64,000 nucleotides of DNA from Candidatus Campbellbacteria bacterium (lineage in GTDB: Bacteria > Patescibacteriota > Minisyncoccia > Phycocordibacterales > UBA1006), in NCBI GenBank assembly GCA_002698305.1, contig NZWR01000003.1, forward strand, positions 10,794-74,793, read 5' to 3'. The position numbers were made by a program, and so were the translations under genes. This document shows, piece after piece, positions 421 through 62,833 of this stretch (the first letter of the stretch is position 1; the number at the start of each line of letters is the position of its first letter). The notes under the pieces were generated by a model that was given only the letters and a program-made list of their open reading frames with translations, ran no database searches and had not been told where the DNA came from.

Positions 421-864
421 CTATGTTATTTGTATGGCTCTCTCTTTTTGGTTTTCTGATAGCTGAAAAGACAGCGTTCTCGCTGCAGACCCCTGATCAA
501 CTCCCTCTACCATTTCGGGCCATTCGACAAGAATAAGAGTGTGCGGGTCTCTGAGATAGCTGTCCCATTTTAAATACTCAAGCTCGGATTTATTATTTAA
601 GCGATAGGCGTCAATATGCACGAGGCGCTGTATCCATGAATGATTGGTCTCCTGATATTCTTTCATAACAACAAAGGTAGGGCTTGTTACTGTTTCTTGA
701 ATACCTAAAACATGTGCAATTTTTTTTGCGAACGCTGTTTTACCTGAACCCAAGTCCCCCTTCAAAAAAAGCAGCTGTGCTGTAGGAGCCTTTTTCATCG
801 AACTCACACATTCTTTTGCCAATGCTTCTAGCTGATTAAGGTTTGAGATTTTTTTCTCTATCAT
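421..864 (-). CDS. tsaE: tRNA t6A37 biosynthesis ATPase TsaE (YjeE family)
   Basis: P-loop LKGDLGSGKTAFAKKIAHVLGI and the TSPTFVVMKEY motif. Start moved to M17 (ATG 864): the longer ORF overlaps the upstream terminator hairpin, and a TATAGT box (871-876) lies 6 nt upstream of ATG 864. Confidence 0.8.
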   Translation of the reverse strand: MIEKKISNLNQLEALAKECVSSMKKAPTAQLLFLKGDLGSGKTAFAKKIAHVLGIQETVTSPTFVVMKEYQETNHSWIQRLVHIDAYRLNNKSELEYLKWDSYLRDPHTLILVEWPEMVEGVDQGSAARTLSFQLSENQKERAIQIT

Positions 865-880
865 ATAAATACTATACACA

Positions 881-907
881 AAAAAACACCTTCGAGGTGT
901 TTTTTTG
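881..907 (-). terminator. rho-independent terminator of the 1009-aa surface protein gene
   Basis: Hairpin ACACCT-tcg-AGGTGT flanked by an A-run and a T-run, immediately after the stop at 920. Confidence 0.75.
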
Positions 908-919
908 TGCACTTATTTA

Positions 920-3900
920 TTAACGGTTAGGTCGGTATGGTTCATAGTAATTTCCATTTCCTCCACCGTTTTGAGGTGCTGAATTTCCATAATTTTGAGG
1001 TGCTGCGTACGGTTGCGCTGGTGCTGCCGGTTGACCTGGTTGCATCGGCATTCCTGGTGCTGCGTATGGATTATAATTATTTGCATATGCTTGTGCTCGT
1101 AATTCCTCACGCTCTAGGTACAGCCATCGCGCTACCAAGAAGATAATGAAGAGCCCGAGAATAATCACCAACCATCCAAGGAAGGTAATATTTGCTAGTC
1201 CGAATACAGAAGCTGTTTGCCCTGCAATTCGAACACCATATTCATCGGTATCAAAATCAAGAGCATTTTCTTGTGCATCATTAATTGGATTATCGTAGGC
1301 CATTACTGCTTCTGCAGTAAAGAGATCGCCAACGTTTCCACTAACAACAACTGCAGATACTGTCATTTCTCCATTTTCACCTGCATCAAGATCATCAATG
1401 GTATACAGAACCACATTTCGGTCTGCATCAATTCGTCCACGTGAACTTGAAATTACCTGCATGTCGCTTGGGATTGTAATCTTCAAATCAAGATCATCAA
1501 GGTCAATTTGTGAAATATTTTCCCATTCAATAAGATAGGTTACATTTTCTCCTTCGGTAACAACCTCGCGGTTATCATCAATTTCAAGACGTACCAAAGA
1601 AAGCCCAAGACCAAGTGATGCTAGATCAATATCGTCATCATCATCGTCAACAATAATAATTGGTGGCTGTGAGATAACCACCCCTCCACTATTTGTAGTG
1701 AAACATTTTGTTGAACCTCGGTCTGTTCCAAACTGCGTATTAATCACGGCTCGGATACAGTAGTTTTGTCCCGCCGCAAGACTCGTAAAGCTGTGCGTAC
1801 ATGAACCAACTCCTGTTACGCTATAGGCTCTAGTTTGACTTCCTAGACTTGATGTTCGTCCGTATTCAAAGTAACACGATCCTGAACCACCATTAGCAGT
1901 ATAGGTTCCGTTGAGCGTAGCTGAGCTTGTTGTAATATTTGTTGGATTATCTGTAAGAATAAATGGAGATTGTCCGGTAGGAATAGTGCTTCCTTGTGTT
2001 CGGAATGTCCGTGTATTTCCACATTCATCTTCAGCACAGCCGCGGTACACGTAGGTAGTGTTTGGTGTAAGACCGGTTACCCGCGTACAGAACTGTCCTT
2101 CACGTCTGTCACGTGATGGTGTCTGCGTATAGCTTCCACCGTTTGATCGCCTGAATTCAATATATGTTTCAACTGAATCTCCACCGTCCTCAATAAGGTC
2201 AGCACACATTTCAGCTGTTGTTTGTGTAACGTTTCGCGGAAGTAATGTTTCGATTTCTAAATCATCATTATTATTTCCCCCATCATCATCGTCATCGGTT
2301 GTAAATTCCTCTACATTACCACACTCAAGTGTCTCACCATTATCGTCATATTCTACACAAATTCGATAGTAATATGTTTCATCTTCATCAAGACCATAAA
2401 CGTCATACGGGAAGTCATCGTCTCCGTCAAAATTACTTTCAACAATTGCTGCTTGCAGATCTTGTCCGTCTTCTTCAATGTCGGTAAACTCATTTTCATC
2501 CTCAACGTCTTCTACCTTATCTTCATCTTGTCCCCATACATAGAAAACGATTCCGTTATCAAAGTCGTTCATGTCAACACGTCCATTTAATTCTGCAGAA
2601 TCTTCGTCTACATCATCTTCATTAAGTGTTTCTGCATTGGGTTCATCATCTGATGGATCAGGGTTTCCCCCATCATCATCAGTCTCAAAACTTTTTAGGC
2701 TCCCTGAAGCAATTTGTCCCGAGAATCCCATTTCCTGGGCACACGCACGATAATAATAGGTTTGCTCTGAGGCAAGTCCTGTCCGCAGGTTATCAAAACT
2801 ATATTGTGCATTAAACGGTGCTTGACCTCCTGTAAAGAAGATAGGGGCTCCGGTATTACAGTTAGCGTCTGAGGTTGATGTTCCAAACACAAAGAAAAGT
2901 GATTGGGCCGTTCCCTCAATAAGAGTTCCATTCAGTCGTGCTGAATCTTGGTCGATATTTGTTGGGTTATCAGTTCGAACAATAAAATCACCTGGGTCGA
3001 CAATGACAACATCATCATCGGTTGTGAAGGTTCGGACACTTCCGTTAATACCATTATTAAGACATGCTCGGTATCGGTAGGTTGTTTCAGATTGTAATCC
3101 TGTTTCAGTTACGCTGAAATTTTGACCAGCATCATATGAACCTGATACATCAACACGTTGTGATGATGAAGAACAATTTGGATTTGTTCCAGTAGTAAGT
3201 GCGAACCATACTTGCTCATTATTTCCTTCAATCACTTCACCATTCAGTCGTGCTGAATCTTCATCAACATTTGTTGCTCCATTCGTTTGAACTTCTGGGT
3301 CCGGATCTGGATCAATGACAACCTCCGTGTTGGTGATTTTATACTTCACTGCGATTGAACCTTGTGCACACCAGCTTCCTCCTAGGGTCGCAAGATCACC
3401 AAGATACTGCCCTCCACTTGTAAATAAATTGCTGTTGGTATTTACATTGTAGTCGTAGGCTGCGGGACAGGTTACTCCTTGCTGAACGGTTCCTCCATGT
3501 TCATTTTGGATTTCTCCGTCAACGAATTCAATATCATATGAACCCGGTAAACCATTTACTGTCACGGAGTCCGTAATAGGATTTGCATTTTGTGCATTCA
3601 GCTTTGTCGTAAAGGTATAACTTGGATCATTATCAGAATCATCCTCAGTAAAGTAGATTCCTCGCGCATTGATGACATCTTCATTTGAATTTCGAAGTGC
3701 CATAAAGTCAGTAAAGACCGTAACATATCCGACGTCTCCTGGCTGATCAATATCAAGTGATACAGAGGTGTATTGCCCTCCACAATCAACACAGGTTTGC
3801 CCTGCTCCAGACTCAATAATTGAGGTAATCCCGATGTTTGCAGGACTTGGATTAGGGTCAAAACTTGCCGCATCTGCAAAAGCCGCTGTACCAAAAAGTA

Positions 3901-4006: not shown

Positions 4007-4034
4007 ATAATATCATATTTAAATATATTGTCAA
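4007..4034 (-). promoter_or_regulatory. sigma70-type promoter of the 920-3949 gene
   Basis: Minus-strand TTGACA (4029-4034), 16 nt, TATTAT (4007-4012), about 50 nt upstream of the ATG. Confidence 0.55.
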
Positions 4035-5288: not shown

Positions 5289-5317
5289 AAAATATCAATA
5301 AATTATAGATTTGTCAA
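5289..5317 (-). promoter_or_regulatory. sigma70-type promoter of the 4167-5261 gene
   Basis: Minus-strand TTGACA (5312-5317), 17 nt, TATTTT (5289-5294). Two DnaA-box-like 9-mers (5331-5348) lie just upstream. Confidence 0.5.
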
Positions 5318-6644: not shown

Positions 6645-6673
6645 AATATATCATTTAATTAATAATTTGTCAA
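6645..6673 (-). promoter_or_regulatory. sigma70-type promoter of the 5409-6494 gene, with a ~140-nt hairpin-containing leader
   Basis: Minus-strand TTGACA (6668-6673), 17 nt, TATATT (6645-6650). The leader contains a 10-bp stem, 6535-6544 paired with 6568-6577. Confidence 0.6.
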
Positions 6674-6678
6674 GTCAA

Positions 6679-7656: not shown

Positions 7657-7686
7657 AGAATATACCAAAAATTATTAACTTGTCAA
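7657..7686 (-). promoter_or_regulatory. sigma70-type promoter of the lipoprotein gene
   Basis: Minus-strand TTGACA (7681-7686), 18 nt, TATTCT (7657-7662). Confidence 0.45.
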
Positions 7687-7755: not shown

Positions 7756-9924
7756 CTATGCAGTTTTTTCTTTACTTAAGATATCATGATACTCAACTCC
7801 CTCTCGAATTCTCCGTAAGCCTTTCTCGGCACTCGCGCTACTATCATCTGATTGTTGTTGGTGTAGTGTCTCTGCATGAGCATGTAAGTCTTTAAAATGT
7901 TTATGGGTTTGAGCGAAGTTGTTATCTTCTTCAAAAACTTCTGGAGCATTCTGGCTTTTTAATAAATGAAGGATAGTGTTCTGAACTTTCCTAATATCAT
8001 TTGTCACGTTATTTTCAGGATTGACTGCCTGGTCATGCTCGAGCCTCTTAAGGTAATCTACCAAGAGTGATATTTCAACGCTTTTAGGCGACATCAAGGC
8101 GTCAGGATTCATTTTTTGTGGCGCTATAATGCTCTCTGGTTGGTCCTGATGCTTGTCATTATTCTGAGTTTCTTTTGCAGAATTCTCCTCAGCAAGTGAG
8201 GCTTCTTTTTTTGCTTGAGTAGACGAAGCCTCTTTAATTTCAAGATCAACTACTTTGGCAACTTCTTCTAGGGTAGTAATTTGATTTACAATTTTAATCA
8301 CTCCATCTTCTGCCATGTTAAGCAGTCCCTGTTTTTCTGCGACGCGACGCACATCTTGTTCTGAAGGGTTTTTATTAAGCAGTTCCTCAATAGATTCATC
8401 GGTAATGATTGCTTCAAAAATTCCCATGCGGCCCTTATACCCTGTCTGATTACACACCTCACAACCAACAGGTTCCGCCAAGGTAATCTCTTGATCAGAA
8501 GAAACACCATATTCATGTAATGGTTTACTGTTGTTTTCAGCTCTTCGCAGAACAGAACGTAGGATCATTTGCTCTTCTTCAGTTGCTGGTCGTTTTTTAT
8601 GACAATTTTCACACACCTTTCGAACCAGTCGCTGCGCGAGGGATACAGTTAAGGCTGCTGCAAGAATTTGTGGTGAGACCCCAAGATCAATCAACCGTGG
8701 AATAACCCCAGCCGCTCCATTGGTATGGAGTGTTGAAAGCACAAGGTGACCAGTCAATGAAGCATTTACTGCAATTGAAGCTGTTTCAGCATCACGAATC
8801 TCTCCCACCATAACAATATCAGGATCCTGCCTGAGTGCGGCACGTAACCCAGAAAGAAAATCATATCCCCGGCTTCTATTTACTTGTGTTTGGCTGATAC
8901 CATCAAGATGGTATTCAATAGGATCTTCAATGGTTAGAATTTTTACTTCGGGGTTATACACCTTATTCATAAATGAATAGAGGGTTGTTGTTTTACCTGA
9001 ACCTGTCGGTCCTGTGGTCAAGATCATCCCGTTTGGTTTTTTAATTTCTTTAAGGAGAATTTCATAGAGCTTTGGCTCAATACCTAACTTTTCAAGACCT
9101 ACCTTGATTCCATCTGGATTCAAAATACGCATTACAAATGATTCACCATACGCGCTTGGAATCACTGATACACGCACCTCAATTTCCTTGCCGTCATAAT
9201 CAATGGTAAATCGTCCATCTTGGGCGTTACTGTTTTGCGTCAGTTTCATATTTGAAATCAGCTTAATTCGCGAAAGAAGTTTTTTATAGTCTTCGTGCGT
9301 CATTGTTGCAATATCTTGCAAAACTCCATCCTGCCGGAACCGTAGGCGCACAACTTCATCCTGAGCTTCAATATGAACGTCAGATGATCCAGTCGCAATT
9401 GCTCCAGCAAAAATAATCTCCATGATTTGCGTTGTTTTCTTCTGGCTATCATCAGCAAAAACCGCATTCATTTCATTTTGGATATCAGTATTTGAATTAA
9501 TATTTTCACTTAGTTTTTTGAGTTCAGCTTCTGAAATATCAAGCATTCCCCCTTCTGACTCAGTGGTTTTAGAAATATCTTGATATCGATCCCATGCTTT
9601 CTCTAAGCTCTTGGTTGATGCCATATGGACACCGAGGTTATATTTCTTTTCAAGCTTTTCAATGACTCGTTTTGTGTCTGGAAGATTAGGTGACTTAACT
9701 GCTACATACAAATCCTTTCCTACAATCTTAAAAGGAGCGATGAGTGCATGACGAGCATCACTTTCATCAATGACCGATAAGGCATCGGTTTCAACAGGGG
9801 TCCCTGACAAATCAATATACGGAAGCTTGAATTTTTCTGCGATTCGCTCAACAAACGATTCCTCTTCTTTGTGGCGAATTTCTGCGATTCTTTTATTTTG
9901 ACCTTTGTTATCAAAGTTTGGCAT
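7756..9924 (-). CDS. pilB: GspE/PilB-family secretion ATPase (type IV pilus assembly ATPase-like) with ~170-aa C-terminal extension
   Basis: N-terminal T2SSE_N-like region, Walker A TGPTGSGKTTTLYS, Asp/His boxes, tetra-Cys CENCHKK...CEVCNQTGYKGR. The conserved core ends near ..TTLEEVAKV and is followed by a low-complexity/helical tail. Confidence 0.85.
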   Translation of the reverse strand: MPNFDNKGQNKRIAEIRHKEEESFVERIAEKFKLPYIDLSGTPVETDALSVIDESDARHALIAPFKIVGKDLYVAVKSPNLPDTKRVIEKLEKKYNLGVHMASTKSLEKAWDRYQDISKTTESEGGMLDISEAELKKLSENINSNTDIQNEMNAVFADDSQKKTTQIMEIIFAGAIATGSSDVHIEAQDEVVRLRFRQDGVLQDIATMTHEDYKKLLSRIKLISNMKLTQNSNAQDGRFTIDYDGKEIEVRVSVIPSAYGESFVMRILNPDGIKVGLEKLGIEPKLYEILLKEIKKPNGMILTTGPTGSGKTTTLYSFMNKVYNPEVKILTIEDPIEYHLDGISQTQVNRSRGYDFLSGLRAALRQDPDIVMVGEIRDAETASIAVNASLTGHLVLSTLHTNGAAGVIPRLIDLGVSPQILAAALTVSLAQRLVRKVCENCHKKRPATEEEQMILRSVLRRAENNSKPLHEYGVSSDQEITLAEPVGCEVCNQTGYKGRMGIFEAIITDESIEELLNKNPSEQDVRRVAEKQGLLNMAEDGVIKIVNQITTLEEVAKVVDLEIKEASSTQAKKEASLAEENSAKETQNNDKHQDQPESIIAPQKMNPDALMSPKSVEISLLVDYLKRLEHDQAVNPENNVTNDIRKVQNTILHLLKSQNAPEVFEEDNNFAQTHKHFKDLHAHAETLHQQQSDDSSASAEKGLRRIREGVEYHDILSKEKTA

Positions 9925-9974
9925 AGATACCCTAGTATACCTTAGGAGGTGTTTAAAATCATCACCTTTATTTT

Positions 9975-10346: not shown

Positions 10347-10355
10347 TGGTATACT
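10347..10355 (+). promoter_or_regulatory. extended -10 element (TGGTATACT) 6 nt upstream of the ruvB ATG, leaderless-type promoter
   Basis: TGgTATACT at 10347-10355, ATG at 10362. The same 18-mer, TGGTATACTCT(C/T)TGTATG, recurs at 39235-39252. Confidence 0.55.
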
Positions 10356-10361
10356 CTCTGT

Positions 10362-11348
10362 ATGTCACAGGACACACCAACAACACTTTCTCTTGATCCT
10401 CAGCTGCGCCCAAACTCGTGGGACGAGTATATTGGCCAAGAAAGTATTAAAAAAAATCTTCATATTCTACTTACTGCTGCTGAAGGGCGAGGACAGCAAC
10501 CCGAGCATATTCTCTTTTACGGCCCACCTGGCCTTGGAAAAACTACGCTCTCCCACCTTATCGCAAAAGAAATGAAACGTGATATTAAAATCACCTCTGG
10601 TCCAGCCATCGAAAAAGTTGGGGACCTTGCAAGTATTCTAACTAATCTTGGTAAGGGAGATATTTTGTTTATTGATGAAATTCATAGACTTAACAAAAGT
10701 ATTGAGGAGGTATTGTACCCTGCCATGGAATCAGGCGTGCTTGATATTATTATCGGAAAGGGTCCCTCTGCGAGAACGATTCAACTTGATTTACCTGAGT
10801 TCACCTTAATTGCAGCAACCACAAAAATAGCTATGCTTTCCGCCCCGCTACGTTCTCGTTTCTCCGGTGGTGTATTTAAGCTTGAATTTTATAGTGATCA
10901 AGAAATGGAGCAGATTATTTATCAGTCTGCGGGTAAACTTGGTATTGCTATTACTGACGGGGGTGTTCACACTATTGCGTCGCGCAGCCGGGCAACCCCT
11001 CGAACTGCAAATTATTTTTTAAAGCGCGTTCGTGATTATGCAGAAGTGCATAAAAAAAATATTGATGAGACCGCTGTTCTTGAGGCACTTGCCATGATTG
11101 GCGTTGATGAGCTTGGGCTTCGTCAAACTGACCGAGAAGTTCTTGTTGCCATTATTGATAAATTTGGTGGTGGTCCTGTTGGGGTCAAAACAATTGCAAC
11201 AGCCACCCACGATGAGGTTGACTCTATTGAGTCAGTCATCGAACCTTATCTTATTCAAAAAGGACTTATTGAATTAACACCGCGAGGACGGATTGCAACA
11301 GAACAAGCCTACCTCCATCTTGGAAAAGAAGGGTTTGTGCAAAAATAA
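10362..11348 (+). CDS. ruvB: Holliday junction branch migration helicase RuvB
   Basis: LRPNSWDEYIGQE, Walker A GPPGLGKTTLSHLIA, DEIHRL, sensor ATTKIAMLSAPLRSRF. Confidence 0.95.
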   Translation: MSQDTPTTLSLDPQLRPNSWDEYIGQESIKKNLHILLTAAEGRGQQPEHILFYGPPGLGKTTLSHLIAKEMKRDIKITSGPAIEKVGDLASILTNLGKGDILFIDEIHRLNKSIEEVLYPAMESGVLDIIIGKGPSARTIQLDLPEFTLIAATTKIAMLSAPLRSRFSGGVFKLEFYSDQEMEQIIYQSAGKLGIAITDGGVHTIASRSRATPRTANYFLKRVRDYAEVHKKNIDETAVLEALAMIGVDELGLRQTDREVLVAIIDKFGGGPVGVKTIATATHDEVDSIESVIEPYLIQKGLIELTPRGRIATEQAYLHLGKEGFVQK

Positions 11349-11437
11349 AATCACTTAGGTTTTTTTAATTTGGAGGTACTGTGTTATCCGCACGAAAGAA
11401 CTTGCTCAAAGAGATATCTCTGATTAAAATACATCGT

Positions 11438-11956
11438 ATGGGATCATCACACAAAAAACAAGGAAAAATCGCTGACAATAATGCAAAAAAAGCAAAAGTA
11501 TTTGGAAAGCTTGTTCGCCTTATCCAAGTAGAAGCAAAAAAATCAAACGGCGATGTTAACGCAGCGGGACTCTCTGCAGCCATCAAAAAAGCTTATAAAG
11601 AGAATATGCCCAAAGACACGGTTGAGCGTGCAATCAAAAAAGCCTCTGAAGCTGGTGATACTACCGAGGTTCTGTACGAAGCGTATGGACCAGGAGGTGT
11701 TGGGATTATTATTACCGGACTTACCGATAATACCAATCGCACCAATCAAGAAGTTAAAGCTATTTTGAGTAAAAATGGTGGTAATCTTGGTGCCGCTAAT
11801 TCTGTATCATGGAATTTTACTTTTAACGAAGACAGAGACTGGGTACCAAACACAACAATTGAAGTTTCAAAGGATCATCAAGAAGGATTGGAGACTCTTA
11901 TTGAATTTCTTGAAGAACATGATGATACGCAAAATATTTATCATAATGCACAATAA
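11438..11956 (+). CDS. yebC: YebC/PmpR-family regulator (short, 172 aa)
   Basis: MGSSHKKQGKIADNNAKKAKVFGKL.. matches the YebC N-terminus, plus LYEAYGPGGVGIII. Start moved to ATG 11438, with TAAAAT 7 nt upstream. Shorter than the typical ~240 aa. Confidence 0.75.
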   Translation: MGSSHKKQGKIADNNAKKAKVFGKLVRLIQVEAKKSNGDVNAAGLSAAIKKAYKENMPKDTVERAIKKASEAGDTTEVLYEAYGPGGVGIIITGLTDNTNRTNQEVKAILSKNGGNLGAANSVSWNFTFNEDRDWVPNTTIEVSKDHQEGLETLIEFLEEHDDTQNIYHNAQ

Positions 11957-11978: not shown

Positions 11979-14864
11979 TTCTATCTCAAGGAGAAACTCT
12001 ATTTCTTTAGCCACCACTCGATCATCTTCATCGGTAATAATAAACCGAGCAAGGTTTATTTCTTCAAAATAATTAAGATCTTCTGAAACAAACGAAAATA
12101 TAAACGGGGCGCTTCCGTCGTCTTCAACAAAAGCATTATTAATAAACAATTGAGCTTGCTTAATATCATCTTCGTCTATATCGTTAAATACTATTTCAAC
12201 TGTAATTTCTTCATCGCTCCCATATGATGTACCAGACTCAAGACCTTCTATTTCAAAAGTAAACGGTTCATTGAGAACCCCTCCTGAACCATCATCAGAT
12301 TCAGTTGGGATATCGAAATCAATATCAATAATTTCAGAAAGAAATTCCTCTGCATACTCCTGAACACCAAACTCCCAATTGTCATATTGTGGGTCATCTT
12401 GAGAAGTATCGAGTGTTGTTGGGTCATTTTTATCAATCCAGTGAAGAATGGTATGGGGCTCGGGTTGCGGCACCTCAAGAATAAGCTCTTCTGGGGTTGC
12501 ATCGGAAGCCAATAAACCTGACTCCTTATTAATTTTAACTGATGTTCCGCCATACCAATCTCCCTTAATCATATTTGGATAGTTTTCAAACTCTTCAGGT
12601 AAAGAATAGCTATCAAAATCATCAGCATCATATTTATCAAGCATGGCAGTCATATATGCCCGCCATGGTTTTCCAGAAATTGATGATCCTTTTTTCATTG
12701 GGCTATTGTCATTATTCCCAGTCCATACACCAACAGCAACCTCGTCACTGTATCCAATCAACCATGCATCACGGTTATCATTGGTGGTACCAGTCTTTCC
12801 AGCAATATCAGTATCACCAAAATAGAGAAATGATTGCGAACCAAAGAGTGGGGTACGTGCAGCATTATCAGAAAGAATACTATTTACCATGCGTGCTGCA
12901 TTCTTATCAAGTACCCGTTCTTCCTCAGGTTCATATTCATCAATAACACGCCCATCAAGGTCACGTACCTCCATAATAGCTGTAGGGGTGTTATACTCAC
13001 CTTCATTTGAAAGCACGCTGTAGGCACCTGTCATTTCTAGAAGAGAAACCTCTCCCCCTCCGAGTACCAAACCAAGTCCATAAAATTCAGGGGATTGGTT
13101 AAGTGACGTAATTCCCATGTCACGCGCCTTTTGAATAACGTTTCTTACTCCAGCTAAGTAGTTAACTTTAATCGCAGGAATGTTTCGTGACTCTGCTAAT
13201 GCTGCCCTGAAAGTAAGTGGACCTCTAAATTCAAAGTCATAGTTATTTGGAGAGTAACATCCATTTTCACTTGAGCGATCTGTTGGTGCACATCGTGCGT
13301 TAAATTGGGTTTCGGTATCAAAAATTGTGCTTTCTGGTAAATACCCTTTCTCAAAAGCAGTTGCGTACGCAATTGGTTTGAATGATGATCCTGGCTGTCG
13401 TGGTGCAATAGCAACATTAAAGTTTCCATCAAACCCCTCAGTATCAAAATAATCACGTGAACCAACCATAGTAATAATATGACCTGTTCCTGACTCTATT
13501 GCTACCAAGGCAGCATTTGATGCATCGAAATCTTCTTCAACCTCTTCAATATGCTCTTTAATAATTTCTTCTGCTTCTTGCTGCAGCTCATAATCAAGCG
13601 TTGTAATGACTTGAAGCCCACCATTTTGAACAACATCAGCTCCATAAGTTTCCTCAAGTTGCTCTCGCACATACTGAACGAAATGCAGTGATTTACCAAA
13701 ATTATCCTCTTCTGGTAAAAATTCCACAATTTCATTTGCCGCCTCCCTGTATTCTGCATCAGTAATAAATCCATAGCGCTTCATTTCAGTAAGTACTGTC
13801 TGTTGGCGCTGATCAAGTAAATCTTTGTTTTGCCGGTATGGAGAATAAAATGTTGGCCTGTTTGGTATTGCTGCAAGATATGCAGATTGTGCAATAGAAA
13901 GCTCTGAGGCTGGGATTCCAAAAAATCTTCGAGATGCCTCTTGAATTCCGTAGACTGTTCCCCCATATGGTGCTTCATTGAGATAGATCTCAAGAATTTC
14001 ATCTTTAGTTAATCTTCCTTCGATTTTATACGCAAGCACCCATTCTTTTACCTTTCGTGAAATAACTTGATCACGAGTAAGTAATGTATTTTTCACTACC
14101 TGTTGAGTAAGTGTTGACCCTCCAGCAGTACCAGCATCACTAAGACCTAATTTAGACATAAGGGTTTGAATAATAGCTCTAAACGTTGATTTCCACACAA
14201 CCCCATTATGTTCGTAAAATTCATGGTCTTCTATTGCAATAATGGCATCTTTCGCTGATTGAGTAATTTGATCAGTCCCAACTACTGTTCGCCTAATATC
14301 TTCATGAATATCATAGAGAAGTATTTCTCCAGTACGGTCAAAAATCTTTGTTGAATTAGCAATTTTTCTATTTTCAAAATTAGCAACACTTGGAATTTCC
14401 AAAGTAGCAAACCAAATAAAGAATGCAGCCAGACTAAAAACTATGAGCGCTAAAACTACGAGTGCTATTTTTTTGAAAAGTGAAAATCTTTTTTTATTCT
14501 TTTTTGGTGTTCTTTTATCCATAGTATTTTTTTGGTAGGTTTTAGAAACCTCTCTAATCTGGGTATACACCTTATTTTTCATCTGAAAAAAGTTGATATT
14601 TTTTACATATACCTTTTGTATATAATGTACCCCTCTTTCAAACACCTCCTGTGTTGCGCGTAGTAACTCTACACACACATCCCAAAAAAGAAAGAGTAGT
14701 GAGTGCACGGAGTTGTAAATTTTTTTTACCCCCGAAGGTTCTTTCTGAGAAAATTCTTGCGTTCTGCGTTTCTCCATGTACTGCCTATGTTTGCGGGCCA
14801 TTCGTGCCTGTCTTTTTAGGTGCTGCCGCGTGTGGTAGCTTTTCATATCATCACCAAAGTACAT
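11976..14864 (-). CDS. class A penicillin-binding protein (PBP1A-type glycosyltransferase/transpeptidase) with long N- and C-terminal extensions
   Basis: GT51 motifs EDHEFYEHNGV, GGSTLTQQ, RKVKEW. Transpeptidase motifs SSFKP, SRN, KTGTT. TM segment IALVVLALIVFSLAAFFIWF. Start placed at ATG 14864 (TATAAT 7 nt upstream); other in-frame starts are possible. Confidence 0.85.
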   Translation of the reverse strand: MYFGDDMKSYHTRQHLKRQARMARKHRQYMEKRRTQEFSQKEPSGVKKIYNSVHSLLFLFWDVCVELLRATQEVFERGVHYIQKVYVKNINFFQMKNKVYTQIREVSKTYQKNTMDKRTPKKNKKRFSLFKKIALVVLALIVFSLAAFFIWFATLEIPSVANFENRKIANSTKIFDRTGEILLYDIHEDIRRTVVGTDQITQSAKDAIIAIEDHEFYEHNGVVWKSTFRAIIQTLMSKLGLSDAGTAGGSTLTQQVVKNTLLTRDQVISRKVKEWVLAYKIEGRLTKDEILEIYLNEAPYGGTVYGIQEASRRFFGIPASELSIAQSAYLAAIPNRPTFYSPYRQNKDLLDQRQQTVLTEMKRYGFITDAEYREAANEIVEFLPEEDNFGKSLHFVQYVREQLEETYGADVVQNGGLQVITTLDYELQQEAEEIIKEHIEEVEEDFDASNAALVAIESGTGHIITMVGSRDYFDTEGFDGNFNVAIAPRQPGSSFKPIAYATAFEKGYLPESTIFDTETQFNARCAPTDRSSENGCYSPNNYDFEFRGPLTFRAALAESRNIPAIKVNYLAGVRNVIQKARDMGITSLNQSPEFYGLGLVLGGGEVSLLEMTGAYSVLSNEGEYNTPTAIMEVRDLDGRVIDEYEPEEERVLDKNAARMVNSILSDNAARTPLFGSQSFLYFGDTDIAGKTGTTNDNRDAWLIGYSDEVAVGVWTGNNDNSPMKKGSSISGKPWRAYMTAMLDKYDADDFDSYSLPEEFENYPNMIKGDWYGGTSVKINKESGLLASDATPEELILEVPQPEPHTILHWIDKNDPTTLDTSQDDPQYDNWEFGVQEYAEEFLSEIIDIDFDIPTESDDGSGGVLNEPFTFEIEGLESGTSYGSDEEITVEIVFNDIDEDDIKQAQLFINNAFVEDDGSAPFIFSFVSEDLNYFEEINLARFIITDEDDRVVAKEIEFLLEIE

Positions 14865-14892
14865 ACCTTGTATTATACATAGGAAAAAGTAA

Positions 14893-15375: not shown

Positions 15376-15377
15376 AT

Positions 15378-18643: not shown

Positions 18644-18686
18644 ATAAACACCTGTTACAGGTTTTTTTATTTGCTACACTTTGAGT

Positions 18687-19001: not shown

Positions 19002-19032
19002 TATTGTTGGTTGTTTCTGTTACACTTTTTTT

Positions 19033-19797: not shown

Positions 19798-19843
19798 TGC
19801 TTGTTTTTTATTTGTCACCAAACCCCTGTGCTATAATTGAGAT

Positions 19844-39898: not shown

Positions 39899-39911
39899 TA
39901 ATATTTTATAT

Positions 39912-44565: not shown

Positions 44566-44594
44566 TTTTATTTGTATATTGATATAATGAAGTT

Positions 44595-49081: not shown

Positions 49082-49087
49082 GGTGAC

Positions 49088-49126
49088 AGTATAGCGTATT
49101 GGATTCCCGGTGTATTCTCGTATACT
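49088..49126. promoter_or_regulatory. back-to-back divergent TATACT -10 boxes, each 6 nt from its ATG
   Basis: Minus-strand TATACT at 49088-49093 serves ATG 49081. Plus-strand TATACT at 49121-49126 serves ATG 49133. Confidence 0.55.
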
Positions 49127-49132
49127 AATGAT

Positions 49133-51421: not shown

Positions 51422-51497
51422 ATAACACAGCTATAGTAGCATAATATTGCTTTTGGGCAATAAATACCGGTCATGTGGTGTGTGCTATGATATCTGT

Positions 51498-51965
51498 ATG
51501 AATGTAAGCCCTCCTTATAAATATACTCCAGGATACATTATGCTTCCGCTAGAGCAGGACATACAAGGCCTTAATGATCAAATTACTCTTTTTGGTGATA
51601 CTTACACTCTGAAAAAAGAGTTTCACGTTACCTTGATCTATGCTGGTTATTTGTGCTCTCAATACTCTAGCATTAATGAGGAGAAGATTCTTCGGGTATT
51701 TAACAAATTTGTGGTACATAATGGGGTAGAAGAAGTGACCTATTTCCCAGAGTATCGTCTCGTAACTCACCCAGATGGAAGGAAAAGTATTATTCAAAAG
51801 GTTGAGATTGAAAACTTTAATGAATTATATGAAATACTTTCAGACAAGCTAGGGATGGTTATTCCAAAGCCCGTGACGCATATAACTATTTACGTCAATA
51901 CAGGCCAGGGGATTGCGGTTGAGACGGAGGATAAGTTCAAAAAAAGCTTTGAACTACGTGTATAA
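51498..51965 (+). CDS. 2H phosphoesterase superfamily protein (LigT / 2'-5' RNA ligase-like)
   Basis: Two H-x-T-x motifs, FHVTLIY and THITIY. Start at ATG 51498, with TGcTATGAT 6 nt upstream. Confidence 0.65.
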   Translation: MNVSPPYKYTPGYIMLPLEQDIQGLNDQITLFGDTYTLKKEFHVTLIYAGYLCSQYSSINEEKILRVFNKFVVHNGVEEVTYFPEYRLVTHPDGRKSIIQKVEIENFNELYEILSDKLGMVIPKPVTHITIYVNTGQGIAVETEDKFKKSFELRV

Positions 51966-52004: not shown

Positions 52005-52579
52005 TGTTTCATATGAAACATCATTTACTGGTTGCATGAATTAAAAAAACAACATTCTTTATCTAGGTTTAGAAATTAGGTAATATTCTCTATTCTTCTG
52101 ATTCTATGTTTTTTGTTTTGCCTGTCGATATATACAACATAAAGATCAATTTGTGTTTCATATGAAACTCCATGCTTTTTGATATAAGCTAGCATAGTTT
52201 TTTTGAATTTCTGGATTTTCTTTGCATTAAAGTTTTCTGCTGGGTTATACAATGTTTCATATGAAACATTCGCATTGGTGCACTGGATGCTTTTAACTTC
52301 TATAAAATGTATACGATCATCTTTTTGAGCAACGATATCGATTTCACCTATTGGAATGGTAAAGTTTCTCTCTATAAGGTAAAATCCTGATTTAGAGAGG
52401 TATTCACAGCAAATTTCCTCACCTTTTTCTCCTATTTTTTGAGTGCGCGACGTGAAAACCTTCATAGTAGTAGTATAACAGAGTATGAGCAGTTTTTAGT
52501 TATATATGTTTCATATGAAACATATATAATTTTATAATAGTGTTTCATAAGTTTTGGTATGTGTATTTCACGTGAAACC
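52005..52579. repeat. cluster of five parS-like 16-bp palindromes
   Basis: TGTTTCATATGAAACA at 52005-52020, 52253-52268 and 52507-52522. TGTTTCATATGAAACT at 52154-52169. TATTTCACGTGAAACC at 52564-52579. Canonical parS is TGTTNCACGTGAAACA. Confidence 0.55.
52076..52465 (-). CDS. yraN: YraN-family (UPF0102) endonuclease-like protein
   Basis: GEKGEEICCEYLSKSGFYLIERNFTIPIGEIDIVAQKDDRIHFIEVKS. TATACT lies 6 nt upstream of the ATG. Confidence 0.8.
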   Translation of the reverse strand: MKVFTSRTQKIGEKGEEICCEYLSKSGFYLIERNFTIPIGEIDIVAQKDDRIHFIEVKSIQCTNANVSYETLYNPAENFNAKKIQKFKKTMLAYIKKHGVSYETQIDLYVVYIDRQNKKHRIRRIENIT

Positions 52580-52854: not shown

Positions 52855-52882
52855 TTGATATTTGTGTAATTGTGCATATACT
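52855..52882 (+). promoter_or_regulatory. promoter of tRNA-Arg
   Basis: TTGATA (52855-52860), 16 nt, TATACT (52877-52882), about 27 nt before the tRNA 5' end. Confidence 0.5.
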
Positions 52883-54488: not shown

Positions 54489-54544
54489 CAAATTACTCTT
54501 CGATATTATCTTGCTGAAAAGAAACAAGCTCATATACTACAACT

Positions 54545-56044
54545 ATGAAAAGGATTACTCCAAAAAATATACCAAAGGGGGTGCGCTGGGTTATTGACCA
54601 ACTCCAGAGTGCAGGACATGAGGCTTTTATCGTTGGGGGTTGCGTTCGAGATATGATTATCGGCCGTGAGCCAAACGATTGGGATGTTACAACAAATGCT
54701 GTTCCTGATGAAATTATTAAGGTATTTGAAAAAACTGATAGGCGAGTAGTCTACGAAAATAATTTCGGTACGGTGGGTATCGTAAATAAAGAATTAGAAA
54801 AAGAAGATCCAGCTTATGAAATTGAGATAACCCCGTACCGAACAGAGGGTGACTACTCGGATAACCGTAGGCCTGATCAGGTTTCCTTTAGTACAGAAAT
54901 TACAGAAGACCTGATGAGGCGTGACTTTACCATTAACGCGATGGCCTATGATCCTACTCGTGAGCTCTTGGTTGATGAATACGGAGGAGAGCGTGATATT
55001 GAAAAAGGTGTCATTAGGACAGTTGGAAATCCTGACGAGCGATTTTCCGAGGACGCGCTTCGCATTATGCGTGCTGTCCGCTTTTCAGCGCAGCTTGGTT
55101 TTGTTTGCGGAGAAGAGACAATGCAAGCAATACGAAATCACGCTAAACGATTACAAAATATCTCGGCCGAACGGATTCGTGATGAGTTTATTAAAATTGT
55201 TGATGCTCCGTATGCGATGGATGGCATTACGAGCCTTCATACACTTGGCATGTTAAAGTATATTGTTCCTGAACTTGAAGAGGGTATCGATTGCGAGCAA
55301 GGAGGCATTCACTCATTTGACGTGTGGACCCATAATCTAAAATCACTTGAACATGGAACCCATAAAAACTATCCATTCTATGTGAAACTTGCCGCATTGT
55401 TTCATGATATTGGGAAACCTGCGACTCGCCGCAAGGCAAATGGGCGTGGAAGCAAGGAGTGGACCTTTTATGGTCACGAGGTTGTTGGGGCACGTATGGC
55501 ACGTGACATTATGCAGCGCCTAAAATTTCCGAAAGACACTATTGAAAAAGTATATAAACTTGTCCGGTACCATATGTTTTTTTCTGACCCTGATGCGATT
55601 ACCTTATCAGCAGTACGGCGAATGGTAAAAAATGTCGGTAAGGATATGATTTGGGATTTGATGGATCTTCGTACCTGTGACCGTATTGGAACAGGGAGAC
55701 CTAAAGAAAAACCATATCGCCTGCGTAAATATCATGCCATGATTGAAGAGGTGATACGTGATCCCATTTCCGTTGGTATGCTGAAGATTAATGGTGACAT
55801 TATGATTGGTGAAATGGGGTTACACCCTGGACCAAAAATGGGCTGGGTACTACATGCGTTATTAGAGGAAGTGCTTGATGATCCAACTAGAAATACAAGA
55901 GAGTATCTTGAACAACGTACGCGTGAGCTCTATGAATTACCAGACCAAGAAATAAGGAAGCTTGGCGAAGCAGGGAAGGACAAAAAAGAAGAAGAAGAGT
56001 TTCAGGCAGTGAAAAAGCTGCACCGCAAACACAAGGTAGGTTAA
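54545..56044 (+). CDS. cca: CCA-adding tRNA nucleotidyltransferase with HD domain
   Basis: GGCVRD...DWDVTT head domain, RRDFTINAMA, and HD region LFHDIGKP. TATACT lies 6 nt upstream of the ATG. Confidence 0.88.
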   Translation: MKRITPKNIPKGVRWVIDQLQSAGHEAFIVGGCVRDMIIGREPNDWDVTTNAVPDEIIKVFEKTDRRVVYENNFGTVGIVNKELEKEDPAYEIEITPYRTEGDYSDNRRPDQVSFSTEITEDLMRRDFTINAMAYDPTRELLVDEYGGERDIEKGVIRTVGNPDERFSEDALRIMRAVRFSAQLGFVCGEETMQAIRNHAKRLQNISAERIRDEFIKIVDAPYAMDGITSLHTLGMLKYIVPELEEGIDCEQGGIHSFDVWTHNLKSLEHGTHKNYPFYVKLAALFHDIGKPATRRKANGRGSKEWTFYGHEVVGARMARDIMQRLKFPKDTIEKVYKLVRYHMFFSDPDAITLSAVRRMVKNVGKDMIWDLMDLRTCDRIGTGRPKEKPYRLRKYHAMIEEVIRDPISVGMLKINGDIMIGEMGLHPGPKMGWVLHALLEEVLDDPTRNTREYLEQRTRELYELPDQEIRKLGEAGKDKKEEEEFQAVKKLHRKHKVG

Positions 56045-57365: not shown

Positions 57366-57463
57366 GGTATGAAGTTTTTAATAGTGAGTATTATATTTAA
57401 ATAAAATTTAACATATTTAAATATTTTGTCAAACCAAAACACAGCTTACTTTGACTGTGTTTT

Positions 57464-58246
57464 TTACGATAATGTGATTCCGACCGGGCAATGATCTGAT
57501 CCGGTAATGTGATCATAGATTGTCGCATCCTGTATCTTCTTCTTTAGTTTTTGAGATGTAAATACATAATCGATTCTCCATCCAACATTACGTGCTCGGG
57601 CTGCGGCACGGTATGACCACCAGGTGTATCGTATTGTTTTGGGAAAGAGTACTCTAAAGGTGTCAATAAAACCAGCGTTAATAATGTTGGTAATACCTTC
57701 TCGCTCCTGATCGGTAAACCCGGCCGTCCCTGGTTTTTTCTCGGTCGTTCGGTTTGCATCAGGACGTGCGATATCAATATCGTAGTGTGCAGCGTTAAAG
57801 TCTCCACATACTACTATAGGTTTTTTCTTTTCAAGTTTTTTAAGGTGTTTGAGAAAAGCAGTGTCCCATTGTGTATGTCGCAACTCAAGTCGCGCCAAAT
57901 CAGGTTTTGAATTAGGGGTATAGACATTTACAACAATAAGGTCATCAAATTCAGCATTAATGATGCGCCCTTCGTTTTCTATGGGTGAGTCCTTCATTCC
58001 GTACCATACCTTCACTGGCTCTTTTCTTGAAAAAAGAGCGGTAGATGAATATCCTTTTTTTTCTGCACTGTGAAAATATTGATGCGGATAATCTGGAAAC
58101 AATGAACCATCTATTTGTTCAGGTTGAGCTTTTGTTTCCTGCAGACAAAAAACATCTGGTTGCTCTGTTTTATTGATAAATTCAAGTGCGCCTGGTTTTT
58201 TAACCCATGCGCGAAATCCGTTAACGTTCCATGAGATGATTTTCAT
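57464..58246 (-). CDS. xth: exodeoxyribonuclease III (AP endonuclease)
   Basis: MKIISWNVNGFRA, LQETK, GDFN, SDHCP. Confidence 0.93.
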   Translation of the reverse strand: MKIISWNVNGFRAWVKKPGALEFINKTEQPDVFCLQETKAQPEQIDGSLFPDYPHQYFHSAEKKGYSSTALFSRKEPVKVWYGMKDSPIENEGRIINAEFDDLIVVNVYTPNSKPDLARLELRHTQWDTAFLKHLKKLEKKKPIVVCGDFNAAHYDIDIARPDANRTTEKKPGTAGFTDQEREGITNIINAGFIDTFRVLFPKTIRYTWWSYRAAARARNVGWRIDYVFTSQKLKKKIQDATIYDHITGSDHCPVGITLS

Positions 58247-58326
58247 ATGAACTAGTGTAGCAGATTTCTATTCGGTAATGGTGTAAATGTGATAGGATTG
58301 AGTCAAACAAACGTAAAAAAAGAATT

Positions 58327-59409: not shown

Positions 59410-59532
59410 TATAAGTGAATATTTTAATTAAAACACTATCTTCTTTGAAGACGGTGTTTTTTTTGACAAAGAAAAATCGCAGGTTATGATAAGCATCAAA
59501 CACTATTAATTTAACACTAAAACTTTTTGCAC

Positions 59533-61188: not shown

Positions 61189-61283
61189 TTTTAAAAGGAC
61201 GGCTAAATAGCTGTCCTTTTATCTTGTCTTTTATGCCCTAGAACTTCTTAATATTTTTTATGTGTTACCGTGTTTCACTGTTA

Positions 61284-62195
61284 TTATTTATTATGAAACT
61301 TCTTGTGTACTTCACGCAGTTGTTTGTCGGTTATATGTGTATAGATCTGAGTTGTTGCGATATTGCTATGCCCTAGCATCATTTGGACACTGCGTATGTC
61401 AGCACCGTTTCGCAGTAAATCAGTTGCAAATGAATGTCTAATGGTGTGCGGGGTAACCTTTTTAGCGATACCCGCTTCAATTGCAATTCGTTTCACCAGG
61501 CGTTCCACACTTCGCGGTGTAAGGCGGAGTGAAACATTTTGCTCTTCAAGTTTCACGACTCTAGGGCCTTCCTGGATAAACAGGGCTTCGTCCATGTCGG
61601 TGCGGTTATTCAGATACTCACGGACACTTTCTCGTGCTTTTGGACTTAAAAAGACAATTCTTAATTTGTCTCCTTTTCCACGAATCGTCATCTCGTCCTT
61701 TGAAAGATCTATGTCTCTGTTTAACGAGGTAAGTTCAGAAACACGCAGTCCCGTAGAAAAGAGCATGTGCATGATGGCATAGTTTCGTTGATGCTTTTGC
61801 GCGACATCGAGCATGCGCTGTAATTCAGTAACATCAAGATGATCTATGTGACGAGCTTCTGTTTTAGCCAGTTCAATATTTTCTGGTGAGTACACCTTGT
61901 GACCCTGCTTCATTAAATATTTAAGAAACATACGAAGAGCTATCAGGTAATAATTCTGAGTTCTTTTTTTCATGGTTCCTGACTGCTGGCCTTTTGTCTT
62001 TGCTCCAGGCTGTCGGTTAAGGTGGAGGCGGAATTGGCGGATGCTCTCTGCATCAATAACATCTATTTTTTTGATGCCAGAAAATTCAATATATTTTGAA
62101 ATATATTGTTTATAGTTTCGGACGGTTTTGAGTGACCGCCCTTTTTCAATCTCGAGGTATTCAAGGAATCGTTGTAGTGCTTCATTAATATTCAC
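61284..62195 (-). CDS. tyrosine recombinase, XerC/XerD-like
   Basis: SAM-like N-domain. Catalytic RVSE..., HTIRHSFATDLL, LGHSNIATTQIYTHI. Confidence 0.85.
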   Translation of the reverse strand: MNINEALQRFLEYLEIEKGRSLKTVRNYKQYISKYIEFSGIKKIDVIDAESIRQFRLHLNRQPGAKTKGQQSGTMKKRTQNYYLIALRMFLKYLMKQGHKVYSPENIELAKTEARHIDHLDVTELQRMLDVAQKHQRNYAIMHMLFSTGLRVSELTSLNRDIDLSKDEMTIRGKGDKLRIVFLSPKARESVREYLNNRTDMDEALFIQEGPRVVKLEEQNVSLRLTPRSVERLVKRIAIEAGIAKKVTPHTIRHSFATDLLRNGADIRSVQMMLGHSNIATTQIYTHITDKQLREVHKKFHNK

Positions 62196-62245
62196 AGATT
62201 AATTATATCAAAAATAATGTCGGAAAATTTTGGTATGATATTTTT

Positions 62246-62833
62246 ATGCAAAATAATCCCTCCTCAATTTCACTCACACCACCGAAAATACTTTTGGATG
62301 ATATTGTTTCTCTTGATGTGAAATTTTTCGATTTTAATAAAAAAGAGCAGACAGGAATAATAGAAGTTCACAAAAGTATTGAGCAAGACATCCGCGGGCT
62401 TTTTGATTTGATTCATACGATCAAATTTCCTCTAGAATCAGTACAGCTGATGTCAGATTTTCATTTTGACGATGACGCATCAATGGCGATGAATAATACC
62501 AGCGCATTTAATTTTAGAACGGTGACCCTGAAACCTCATTTAGTATCAAATCATGGCTATGGTGTTGCGATTGATATTAATCCAATGCAAAATCCGTATA
62601 TTAAAAAAGAAAATATTTTTCCGCCTGATGCTGCCTATGATACACATCAATCAGGAACACTCGTTGCAGATGATGAGATTGTTAAATTCATGAAAAGCCG
62701 TGGCTACACCTGGGGCGGTGATTGGGAAAAACCGTATCTTGATTACATGCATTTCCATAAGGAATTACCAGAAGAGTATTTGGAAAAATATCAAGCAGAA
62801 ATTTCTAAAGTTTTACTGAAAAGACAGCAGTAA
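62246..62833 (+). CDS. M15-family (DD-/LD-) metallopeptidase
   Basis: SNHGYGVAIDINP and WGGDW..DYMHF. TGgTATGAT lies 6 nt upstream of the ATG. Confidence 0.65.
   Translation: MQNNPSSISLTPPKILLDDIVSLDVKFFDFNKKEQTGIIEVHKSIEQDIRGLFDLIHTIKFPLESVQLMSDFHFDDDASMAMNNTSAFNFRTVTLKPHLVSNHGYGVAIDINPMQNPYIKKENIFPPDAAYDTHQSGTLVADDEIVKFMKSRGYTWGGDWEKPYLDYMHFHKELPEEYLEKYQAEISKVLLKRQQ

Follow-up and report, generated by a model that had tools for sequence, protein, structure and literature searches.

Extended -10 boxes in register with start codons in a Candidatus Campbellbacteria genome segment, and the case for leaderless mRNAs

How does a ribosome find the start codon in a genome whose genes are preceded by no recognisable Shine-Dalgarno (SD) sequence, and could the promoter itself provide the answer? 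These questions are raised by a 64,000-nucleotide (nt) stretch of DNA from a Candidatus Campbellbacteria bacterium (contig NZWR01000003.1, positions 10,794 to 74,793 of the forward strand), hereafter called the window, in which hexamers of the bacterial -10 type stand directly in front of many open reading frames (ORFs). The window holds ~65 protein genes, three tRNAs and no rRNA, at a G+C content of about 38%, and its DnaA shares 72-76% identity with proteins from Paceibacteria/Parcubacteria metagenome-assembled genomes. Exact protein matches (NCBI MAQ76952-MAQ77000) assign it to a marine genome from Tara Oceans, that of an ultrasmall bacterium. An earlier reading of the letters alone (the original prediction) listed 23 starts with a -10 hexamer ending 6-7 nt upstream, and proposed that many of the corresponding mRNAs are leaderless. 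In the present analysis, a leaderless-type promoter is found at 29 of the 65 genes (about 45%), and the probability that leaderless transcription and translation are the default mode of this SD-free genome of single-gene units can be put at roughly 0.8.

The -10 box stands at a fixed distance from the start codon

The 45 nt upstream of all 23 listed starts were extracted and every candidate start of every ORF was scored, with a strict box defined as TA[TC]ANT, a loose box as TAnnnT, and the spacing k as the number of nucleotides between the end of the hexamer and the start codon. The predicted layout holds at 22 of the 23 starts, which carry TAnnnT at a spacing of 6 nt (18 sites) or 7 nt (the four starts at 11438, 14864, 39912 and 58246), two of them with a weak hexamer (TAAAAT at yebC, 11438, and TAATAT at clpP, 39912); it fails at dnaA (18314), where just TATAAC/ATAACT is found at this distance. 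Six additional sites of the same layout, absent from the earlier list, were recovered at 368, 19033, 21270, 30385, 37466 and 62195, and together with the 22 they form an aligned set of 28 sites, of which 26 start with ATG and 2 with GTG.

Is this register a product of the way in which the starts were picked? A spacing profile, in which every TA[TC]ANT on either strand is taken and, for each k, the ATGs that begin an ORF of 80 amino acids (aa) or more are counted, gives 19 cases at k = 6 and 0-4 at each other k from 1 to 40, that is, a 15- to 20-fold peak over about 1 per other spacing. This profile, like the first-ATG cases, is independent of start choice and hence not circular. In a Fisher test of 65 curated starts against 359 internal in-frame ATGs, the strict box occurs at a spacing of 6-7 nt before 24 of the former and none of the latter (p = 4e-22), and the loose box before 32 and 21, respectively (p = 1e-16). 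Read in the opposite direction, the two strands of the window together hold 31 TGnTA[TC]ANT sites, and for 14 of them a gene start follows at exactly 6-7 nt. The distance distribution that had been put forward as a check, run here on the window's 65 starts, has its mode at 6-7 nt, the nearest strong -10 box lying at 6 nt in 20 genes and at 7 nt in 6. When 50 kb of E. coli DNA was passed through the same script, no -10 peak appeared at this spacing; the enrichment over controls on which the prediction had staked itself is thus present with respect to internal ATGs and has no counterpart in E. coli.

Around this mode, about seven further genes carry a TATACT-type box 8-12 nt upstream of their starts (9924, 37348, 29550, 24919, 60755, 39550 and 33973), which would give them leaders of 2-6 nt. 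Thirteen TAYANT-N6/7-ATG/GTG sites in the window do not open long ORFs, and none of them has TGn; leaderless small ORFs were considered at these sites and rejected, as the sites look random.

The same geometry is found outside the window. In 80 loci around dnaA from related Paceibacteria genomes (1.33 Mb), the TA[TC]ANT profile reaches 157 at k = 6 and 70 at k = 7 against about 22, and the k = 6 count remains at 107 against about 18 after removal of the dnaA and yidC orthologs; TGn accompanies the box at k = 6 in 35% of cases, versus 6%. TAnnnT at a spacing of 6-7 nt precedes 66/74 yidC, 43/79 dnaA and 19/30 orthologs of the gene at 28834, and all five close PBP1A orthologs, where it takes the form ATGTATAAT-N6/7-ATG; the closest virB4 orthologs show GTAGTATACT-N6/7-ATG in 8/8. 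For comparison, dnaN lacks the box in the window, and 13/73 of its orthologs show one. Among the closest relatives, virB4, ruvB, ruvC, jag and PBP1A retain the box at its distance, with changes in the flanks and in the 6-nt spacer, as would be expected from selection on the promoter-to-start geometry. A held-out 10-kb piece of this genome, outside the window (from the 51-kb contig DBAQ01000004.1 of GCA_002291735.1), has TAnnnT-N6-ATG before 6 of 9 genes, 5 of them with TGn.

Upstream of ATGs that open ORFs, SD motifs (GGAG/GAGG/AGGA and 5-mers) have a flat distance profile in the window, as they do in the 1.33 Mb of relatives. The E. coli control yields a clear SD peak at k = 5-8, so the method does detect SD sequences where they are used. 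In the relatives, GGAGG-like motifs form a bump about 20 nt ahead of ATGs; a distant element was considered here and rejected, the bump being conserved coding sequence that precedes internal Met codons of a penicillin-binding protein (PBP), DnaA and a tRNA synthetase-like gene. Genes outside the leaderless class have A-rich leaders, for example ataaacaaaacaaaATG. The SD-less window fits a survey of Parcubacteria (PMC9297842, Tsurumaki 2022), in which the anti-SD CCUCCU was detected in just 48% of 16S genes; according to that work bS21 is frequently absent there and SD helices probably do not form, the substitute being left unstated.

Promoter anatomy, start codons and competing explanations

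In the alignment of the 28 sites, T, A and T are invariant at hexamer positions 1, 2 and 6 (T-12, A-11 and T-7), and the middle reads T/C-A-A/C, with C at position 5 in 15 of 28, hence the common form TATACT. TGn stands one base upstream of the hexamer at 16 of the 28 sites, versus about 6% expected, and the -35 region holds no conserved element, every position remaining below 0.35 bit. The sites thus show the features of extended -10 sigma-70 promoters (TG at -15/-14 and no -35 dependence), and a composite -35/-10 scan of 14-34 kb found no enrichment either (45 matches vs 58.7 expected in shuffles). These traits support the reading of the box as a recognition pattern for RNA polymerase and not as a base-pairing motif.

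The surroundings of some of the sites leave little space for a leader. Terminator-like hairpins in 14-34 kb number 29, compared to 13.8 expected, and lie at gene ends; at 13 of the 28 sites, the hairpin and U-tract of the preceding gene end 14-50 nt before the start (tsaE, 17 nt; rnpA, 24 nt, directly behind rpmH). The divergent pairs 49081/49133 and 62195/62246, with one box for each gene, have 51 and 50 bp between their start codons, and there is no room for a leader at either pair because of this short interval. The genes of the window are mostly single-gene units, parted by compact terminator-plus-promoter modules of 45-60 nt.

The best argument for the position of the transcription start comes from the bases between box and start codon. 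Across 49 bacteria (PMC12641261, 2025), start sites centre 7 bp downstream of the -10 and share a conserved Y(-1)R(+1)Y(+2) start element; where this element is centred at +7, it sets the start site 93% of the time. With a spacer of 6, the A of ATG is the 7th base downstream of the -10, and the Y-A-T of YATG is a Y-R-Y element; a pyrimidine is present at -1 in 19/19 strict k = 6 sites of the window, a rule applied here to this genome alone. Because YATG matches the Y-R-Y element at +7, transcription would start on the A of the ATG.

Shortened starts were part of the original prediction, and they agree with Pfam profile coordinates and with the N-termini of orthologs. Profiles begin within a few residues of the proposed starts for TsaE, DnaA_N, the RNase P protein, the YebC N-domain, the cytidylyltransferase, trigger factor, RuvC, Xth, Ppa and XerC/D, and Pfam and ortholog N-termini agree with the starts of tsaE, rnpA, yebC, tig, ruvC, xth, PBP1A and virB4. 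In TsaE, for example, residue 24 of the long ORF corresponds to position 3 of the profile, and the N-terminus MGSSHKK of YebC is conserved from residue 1 in orthologs. A GTG at 11381, with GGAGGT 3 nt upstream, was considered as the yebC start and rejected, since the Pfam N-domain and the ortholog N-termini begin at 11438. The gene names also stand, Pfam matches agreeing for ruvB, yebC, rnpA, jag, tig, clpP, the HMA gene, cca, tsaE, PBP1A, ruvC, dnaA, virB4, yraN and xth. The annotation at NCBI independently uses the short TsaE and the short PBP1A (962-aa form). Public annotations of the same genome nevertheless differ for TsaE (163/147 aa), DnaA (459/452), VirB4 (627/614/598) and a hypothetical protein (441/416 aa, the 441-aa form being on record), the disputed ORFs lying at 421-912, 16956-18335, 21332-23215 and 49076-50458. 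This disagreement on N-termini is a practical consequence of the leaderless architecture.

The dnaA start itself requires a separate reading. The short start at 18314 is correct, because the ATG of the longer ORF (18335) overlaps the -10 box, and by the box criterion dnaA is not leaderless; an SD-less leader of about 13 nt is predicted. The same layout is found in the closest relatives, and distant relatives have GTATAAT-N6/7-ATG.

Taken together, how would expression proceed in about 45% of the genes (29/65)? A housekeeping sigma-70-type extended -10, of consensus TGnTAtAcT and with no recognisable -35, would end with its last T 6 nt, in some genes 7 nt, ahead of the start codon; RNA polymerase would begin 7 bp past the -10, on the Y-R-Y element formed by the Y-A-T of YATG; the transcript would begin with AUG (or GUG) and have no 5' untranslated region; ribosome and initiator tRNA would bind the 5'-terminal start codon directly, with no SD pairing, and SD appears to be dispensed with throughout this genome and in its relatives. 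We infer both the transcription start position and the leaderless mode of translation from sequence, and all indirect tests that were run agree with the leaderless mRNAs of the original prediction.

Several points weigh against this reading. About 10 of the 28 starts were picked with the motif's help, which is partly circular, and three sites are weak or wrong (yebC, clpP and dnaA). The 3' end of 16S rRNA was sought in the window and in 81 loci, and none is present there; the loss of the anti-SD is argued here from motif statistics and the literature. The Y(-1) rule fails in more distant relatives, with 62% at k = 6 against a background of 61%, and a 7-nt spacer or wobble of the start would leave some transcripts with 1-2 extra nucleotides at the 5' end. 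Could the pattern then be the product of chance in an A+T-rich genome, helped by a free choice among in-frame starts? TAnnnT is indeed frequent at 38% G+C, as seen before internal ATGs, and the repositioning of about 10 starts relied on the motif itself. The start-choice-free profile has its sharp peak at k = 6 all the same, the strict motif precedes no internal ATG, TGn is co-enriched, and the peak recurs in relatives and in held-out sequence and is absent from E. coli; chance is excluded.

A genome without SD motifs needs another initiation signal, and GeneMarkS-2 describes genomes with non-SD motifs of ribosome-binding sites near their starts (PMC6028130), so the hexamer might instead be a translation signal within leadered mRNAs, either an A/U-rich element bound by bS1 or a partner of an altered 16S tail, with the promoters located further upstream. 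Such a signal would hardly be expected to reproduce the sigma-70 pattern, with T-12, A-11 and T-7 invariant, a variable middle and TGn one base upstream, nor to keep a spacing fixed at 6 nt instead of the spread usual for ribosome-binding sites. The motif does not precede every gene from within a leader, since two operon-internal genes, 31655 and 47548, lack it, as does dnaN; a terminator separates any upstream promoter from the motif in 13 cases, and the divergent pairs leave 50-51 bp between start codons, all of which makes this explanation highly improbable. It is also conceivable that the promoters are real and that leadered, read-through or polycistronic mRNAs are used as well, or even mainly, or that transcription starts 1-3 nt away and gives nearly leaderless products handled by another SD-independent route. 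The continuum of spacings (7, 8, 9, 10 and 12 nt), the short same-strand intergenic gaps that make terminator read-through possible, and the class-2 genes described below, which indicate initiation on SD-less leaders too, are in favour of such mixed products; against them, the sharp mode at 6 nt and the Y-A-T element argue for selection of a start on the A, and terminator-like hairpins lie at gene ends at twice their frequency in shuffles. We consider a mixed output of this kind unlikely, and leaderless mRNAs the preferred reading.

The sites, their neighbours and the second promoter class

The individual sites are listed in Table 1, together with those of a second promoter class, in which the original prediction had seen TTGACA-17-TAnnnT promoters with long leaders before surface proteins and cassette ORFs.

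Table 1. Promoter sites of the window, given as box-spacer-start codon (capitals, hexamer; figures between hyphens, spacing in nt; new, absent from the earlier list) or, for class 2, as -35-spacer-hexamer
Feature	Positions	Strand	Layout	Start	Remarks
polA (5'-3' exo domain)	366..383	-	tgcTATAAT-6-ATG	368	TGCTATAAT-6; new; also in L084
tsaE	862..879	-	gtgTATAGT-6-ATG	864	terminator ends 17 nt before start
ruvB	10347..10364	+	tggTATACT-6-ATG	10362	box kept in orthologs
yebC	11422..11440	+	gatTAAAAT-7-ATG	11438	weak box; TTGCTC 17 nt upstream
PBP1A	14862..14880	-	atgTATAAT-7-ATG	14864	
ruvC	15373..15390	-	tgaTATACT-6-ATG	15375	
dnaA	18312..18342	-	TATAAT at 18334-18339, 19 nt upstream	18314	
rnpA	18672..18689	+	tgcTACACT-6-ATG	18687	2 nt behind U-tract of rpmH terminator
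yidC	19018..19035	+	tgtTACACT-6-ATG	19033	TGTTACACT-6; new
jag	19829..19846	+	tgcTATAAT-6-ATG	19844	
TseH-like gene	21268..21285	-	acgTACAAT-6-ATG	21270	new
virB4/TraC	23174..23191	-	tggTATACT-6-ATG	23176	
927-aa VanY/T4SS-pilin protein	27764..27781	-	tagTATAAT-6-ATG	27766	
339-aa protein	28832..28849	-	tagTATACT-6-GTG	28834	many orthologs also GTG
PrgI	30383..30401	-	tgcTATACT-7-ATG	30385	TGCTATACT-7; new
280-aa protein	31279..31296	-	aggTATACT-6-ATG	31281	
ppa	37451..37468	+	atcTACACT-6-ATG	37466	Pyrophosphatase profile from residue 19; new
tig	38056..38073	+	tgtTATAGT-6-ATG	38071	Trigger_N profile 1-143 on residues 1-144
89-aa protein	39235..39252	+	tggTATACT-6-ATG	39250	
clpP	39896..39914	+	gttTAATAT-7-ATG	39912	weak box overlapping upstream terminator's U-tract
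HMA-MauE gene	44580..44597	+	tgaTATAAT-6-ATG	44595	
divergent pair: cytidylyltransferase (-), 441-aa protein (+)	49079..49135	.	cgcTATACT-6-ATG (-); tcgTATACT-6-ATG (+)	49081 (-); 49133 (+)	
155-aa protein	51483..51500	+	tgcTATGAT-6-ATG	51498	
yraN	52463..52480	-	tgtTATACT-6-ATG	52465	
cca	54530..54547	+	tcaTATACT-6-ATG	54545	
xth	58244..58262	-	tgcTACACT-7-ATG	58246	
divergent pair: xerC/D (-), M15 peptidase (+)	62193..62248	.	tgaTATAAT-6-GTG (-); tggTATGAT-6-ATG (+)	62195 (-); 62246 (+)	xerC/D: TGATATAAT-6-GTG, new
near-leaderless pilB-like ATPase	9922..9942	-	aggTATACT-9-ATG	9924	predicted leader about 3 nt
near-leaderless 880-aa secreted protein	37346..37366	-	tggTATACT-9-ATG	37348	
short-leader gene	29548..29569	-	aggTATACT-10-ATG	29550	
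short-leader gene	24917..24940	-	tgaTATACT-12-ATG	24919	
class 2, 1009-aa signal-peptide protein	4007..4034	-	TTGACA-16-TATTAT	3949	57 nt to start
class 2, signal-peptide protein	5289..5317	-	TTGACA-17-TATTTT	5261	27 nt to start; A-rich leader without SD
class 2, signal-peptide protein	6645..6673	-	TTGACA-17-(TGA)TATATT	6494	150 nt to start
class 2, lipoprotein-like	7659..7686	-	TTGACA-16-TATATT	7622	36 nt to start
class 2, gene	41320..41348	+	TTGACA-17-(TGA)TATATT	41421	72 nt to start
class 2, signal-peptide protein	57405..57432	-	TTGACA-16-TAAATT	57365	39 nt to start
class 2, gene	59463..59490	+	TTGACA-16-TATGAT	59533	42 nt to start
class 2, tRNA-Arg	52855..52882	+	TTGATA-16-TATACT	52910	ends 27 nt before tRNA

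This second class (class 2) is borne out by TTGACA-N16/17 sites upstream of nine other genes (3949, 5261, 6494, 7622, 41421, 42353, 53776, 57365 and 59533), with an exact or near-exact TTGACA, a 16-17-nt A/T-rich spacer and a TATATT-like hexamer, preceded by TGA at three of them. The hexamers lie 24-150 nt before the starts, and the leaders would be about 20-145 nt long, A-rich and SD-less, mainly in mRNAs for secreted proteins. As proposed for surface proteins, four consecutive signal-peptide proteins at 920-7622 have promoters of this kind; two secreted proteins (27766 and 28834) are nevertheless in the leaderless class. The -35-containing class also serves stable RNA genes, since it precedes tRNA-Arg. 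Most genes in a low-G+C stretch (34%) at 40500-48700 belong to the leadered class. This stretch, a possible genomic island, starts at a tRNA-Gly (41154) and has many small orphan ORFs followed by a set of metal-homeostasis genes (HMA-MauE, DUF305, a ZIP transporter, Fur and YibE/F).

Upstream of the dnaA -10, a DnaA-box-like TTTTCCACA (on the dnaA strand) occupies 18346-18354, and relatives carry TTATCCACA at the same position, which suggests autoregulation of dnaA. Between dnaA and rnpA lies rpmH (L34, 48 aa; 18497-18643, +), missing from the ORF list, which is leadered, with TAATAT 36 nt upstream, and is followed by a terminator; because of this terminator, rnpA has its own leaderless promoter and does not form the usual rpmH-rnpA operon. 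A 73-aa ORF overlapping rpmH (18483-18704, -) is probably spurious. Near ruvC, the 252-nt spacer towards dnaN contains a bidirectional terminator at 15287-15311, and a 79-aa ORF (15378-15617, -), with no Pfam match and no homolog in related loci and with the ruvC -10 within its 3' end, is probably not a gene.

Two short repeats were noticed around promoters. The 14-mer AAGGTATACTAGGG, made of a -10 box and its discriminator, has 4 matches versus 0.3 expected (9930-9943, -; 29557-29570, -; 29580-29593, +; and 31284-31297, -, with 1 mismatch), at promoters of the pilB-like ATPase and of type IV secretion cluster genes; two of the copies, in the interval that separates the divergent genes 29550 and 29628, are arranged as a perfect inverted repeat, and the element may be a shared regulated promoter or operator. 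Orthologs of the pilB-like ATPase gene show TATAAT-N8/9. The 11-mer TTGGAGGTACT occurs in three exact copies (11370-11380, +; 31298-31308, -; 37428-37438, +) and two with one mismatch, versus 0.8 expected; it lies 17-58 nt upstream of the leaderless starts of yebC, the gene at 31281 and ppa, a position unlike that of an SD.

The genes of the secretion cluster, which resembles type IV secretion (T4SS) and conjugation systems, lie beside dnaA at 7756-9924 and 20308-33973, and most of the 80 related loci keep them in the same order. They encode the VirB4/TraC and PilB-like ATPases, PrgI, the 927-aa T4SS-pilin and VanY protein, a protein with a TseH-like effector domain and a peptidoglycan-binding protein; the cluster fits the Patescibacteria T4SS described in a preprint (bioRxiv 10.1101/2025.01.22.634366).

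Between ruvB and the pilB-like ATPase gene, a class-2 promoter that serves no protein gene is followed by a structured RNA of ~168 nt (10011-10178, -), apparently unannotated. The element spans 9972-10213, with a TTGACA-17-TGATATATT promoter at 10185-10213 and a strong intrinsic terminator at about 9975-10010; it contains no ORF longer than 33 aa, has a folding z-score of -6.6 and matches no family in Rfam 15. A covariance model recovers it at full length in about 50 of the 80 loci from related genomes, in every case upstream of ruvB and in divergent orientation, with compensatory double changes at 45 of 58 pairs and 86% of cells paired, versus 38-47% in slid controls. A long stem closes the structure, followed by a large internal loop, which is conserved, and a stem at the apex; this rod-like shape resembles that of 6S RNA.

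Known systems and what the architecture may mean

Is this architecture new? In the Actinobacteria and Deinococcus (M. tuberculosis, Cortes 2013, PMC3898074; D. deserti, de Groot 2014, PMC4007540), the -10 box likewise stands 6-8 nt before AUG/GUG, and a TA-like signal about 10 bp upstream of starts has been described (Zheng 2011, PMC3160421). Group C of GeneMarkS-2 (PMC6028130) is defined by such a box just upstream of the start, and gene finders that ignore it over-extend N-termini; leaderless systems of these kinds comprise 25-60% of transcription units and have a weak or absent -35. The window resembles group C in that the motif lies 6-7 nt before many starts and in that it is far from local, exceeding the group's level of at least about 25% of units (29/65 in the window, 6/9 in held-out sequence, and the peak in relatives). 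It differs in that its remaining genes, like those of relatives, lack SD, whereas group C uses SD for leadered or internal genes, and in that nearly all of its genes are monocistronic, with terminator-promoter modules between them. Unlike the Actinobacteria and Deinococcus, it belongs to a Patescibacteria/Paceibacteria lineage of low G+C, with a TATACT consensus and frequent TGn.

Bacteroidetes and Cyanobacteria (group B) are alike in having no SD enrichment, and the class-2 leaders of the window are A-rich and unstructured as theirs are; in group B, however, leadered mRNAs are the majority and the anti-SD, though present, is sequestered, whereas the leaderless class dominates here and the literature suggests that about half of Parcubacteria lack the anti-SD motif as such (PMC9297842). 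Archaeal leaderless genomes (Haloferax, Sulfolobus; group D) and mammalian mitochondria share mostly leaderless first genes, minor or no SD and reduced ribosomes, and candidate phyla radiation (CPR) ribosomes show mitochondria-like patterns of ribosomal-protein loss (PMC9297842). In contrast to archaea, the window has a bacterial, sigma-70-type -10 at -12..-7 and not a TATA/BRE at about -26. Extended -10 promoters of E. coli and Gram-positive bacteria similarly have TG one base upstream, which offsets a missing -35, but in the window this layout serves as the housekeeping default and is locked to the start codon in its register. The architecture is therefore that known from Actinobacteria and Deinococcus, and apparently undescribed for this group: a literature search, of incomplete coverage, found no paper that links leaderless mRNAs to CPR, Patescibacteria, Parcubacteria, Saccharibacteria or Minisyncoccota, and a 2024 perspective on Patescibacteria makes no mention of promoters or translation initiation.

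For annotation, longest-ORF or SD-trained gene callers will systematically over-extend CPR proteins, and the -10-N6-ATG rule fixes their starts; pipelines based on GeneMarkS-2 may already model the feature silently. A broader proposal, possible rather than probable and offered tentatively, is that the Parcubacteria lineage of Campbellbacteria, Nomurabacteria and their relatives has given up SD initiation entirely and reorganised its genome so that nearly every gene is its own unit, with compact terminator-plus-extended-minus-10 modules that put the transcription start on the AUG and a minority -35/-10 class with A-rich leaders for secreted proteins. If true, this would be the first bacterial group with leaderless initiation as the default and SD pairing absent, and a mechanistic answer to the question raised by the loss of the anti-SD in about half of Parcubacteria. 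Leaderless mRNAs and A-rich, SD-less leaders would then offer a concrete, testable answer to how start codons are found there (PMC9297842), and would link the reduced CPR ribosomes to the leaderless systems of archaea and mitochondria. TGnTATACT-N6-ATG may also serve as a ready-made expression signal for the genetic tools in development for Patescibacteria.

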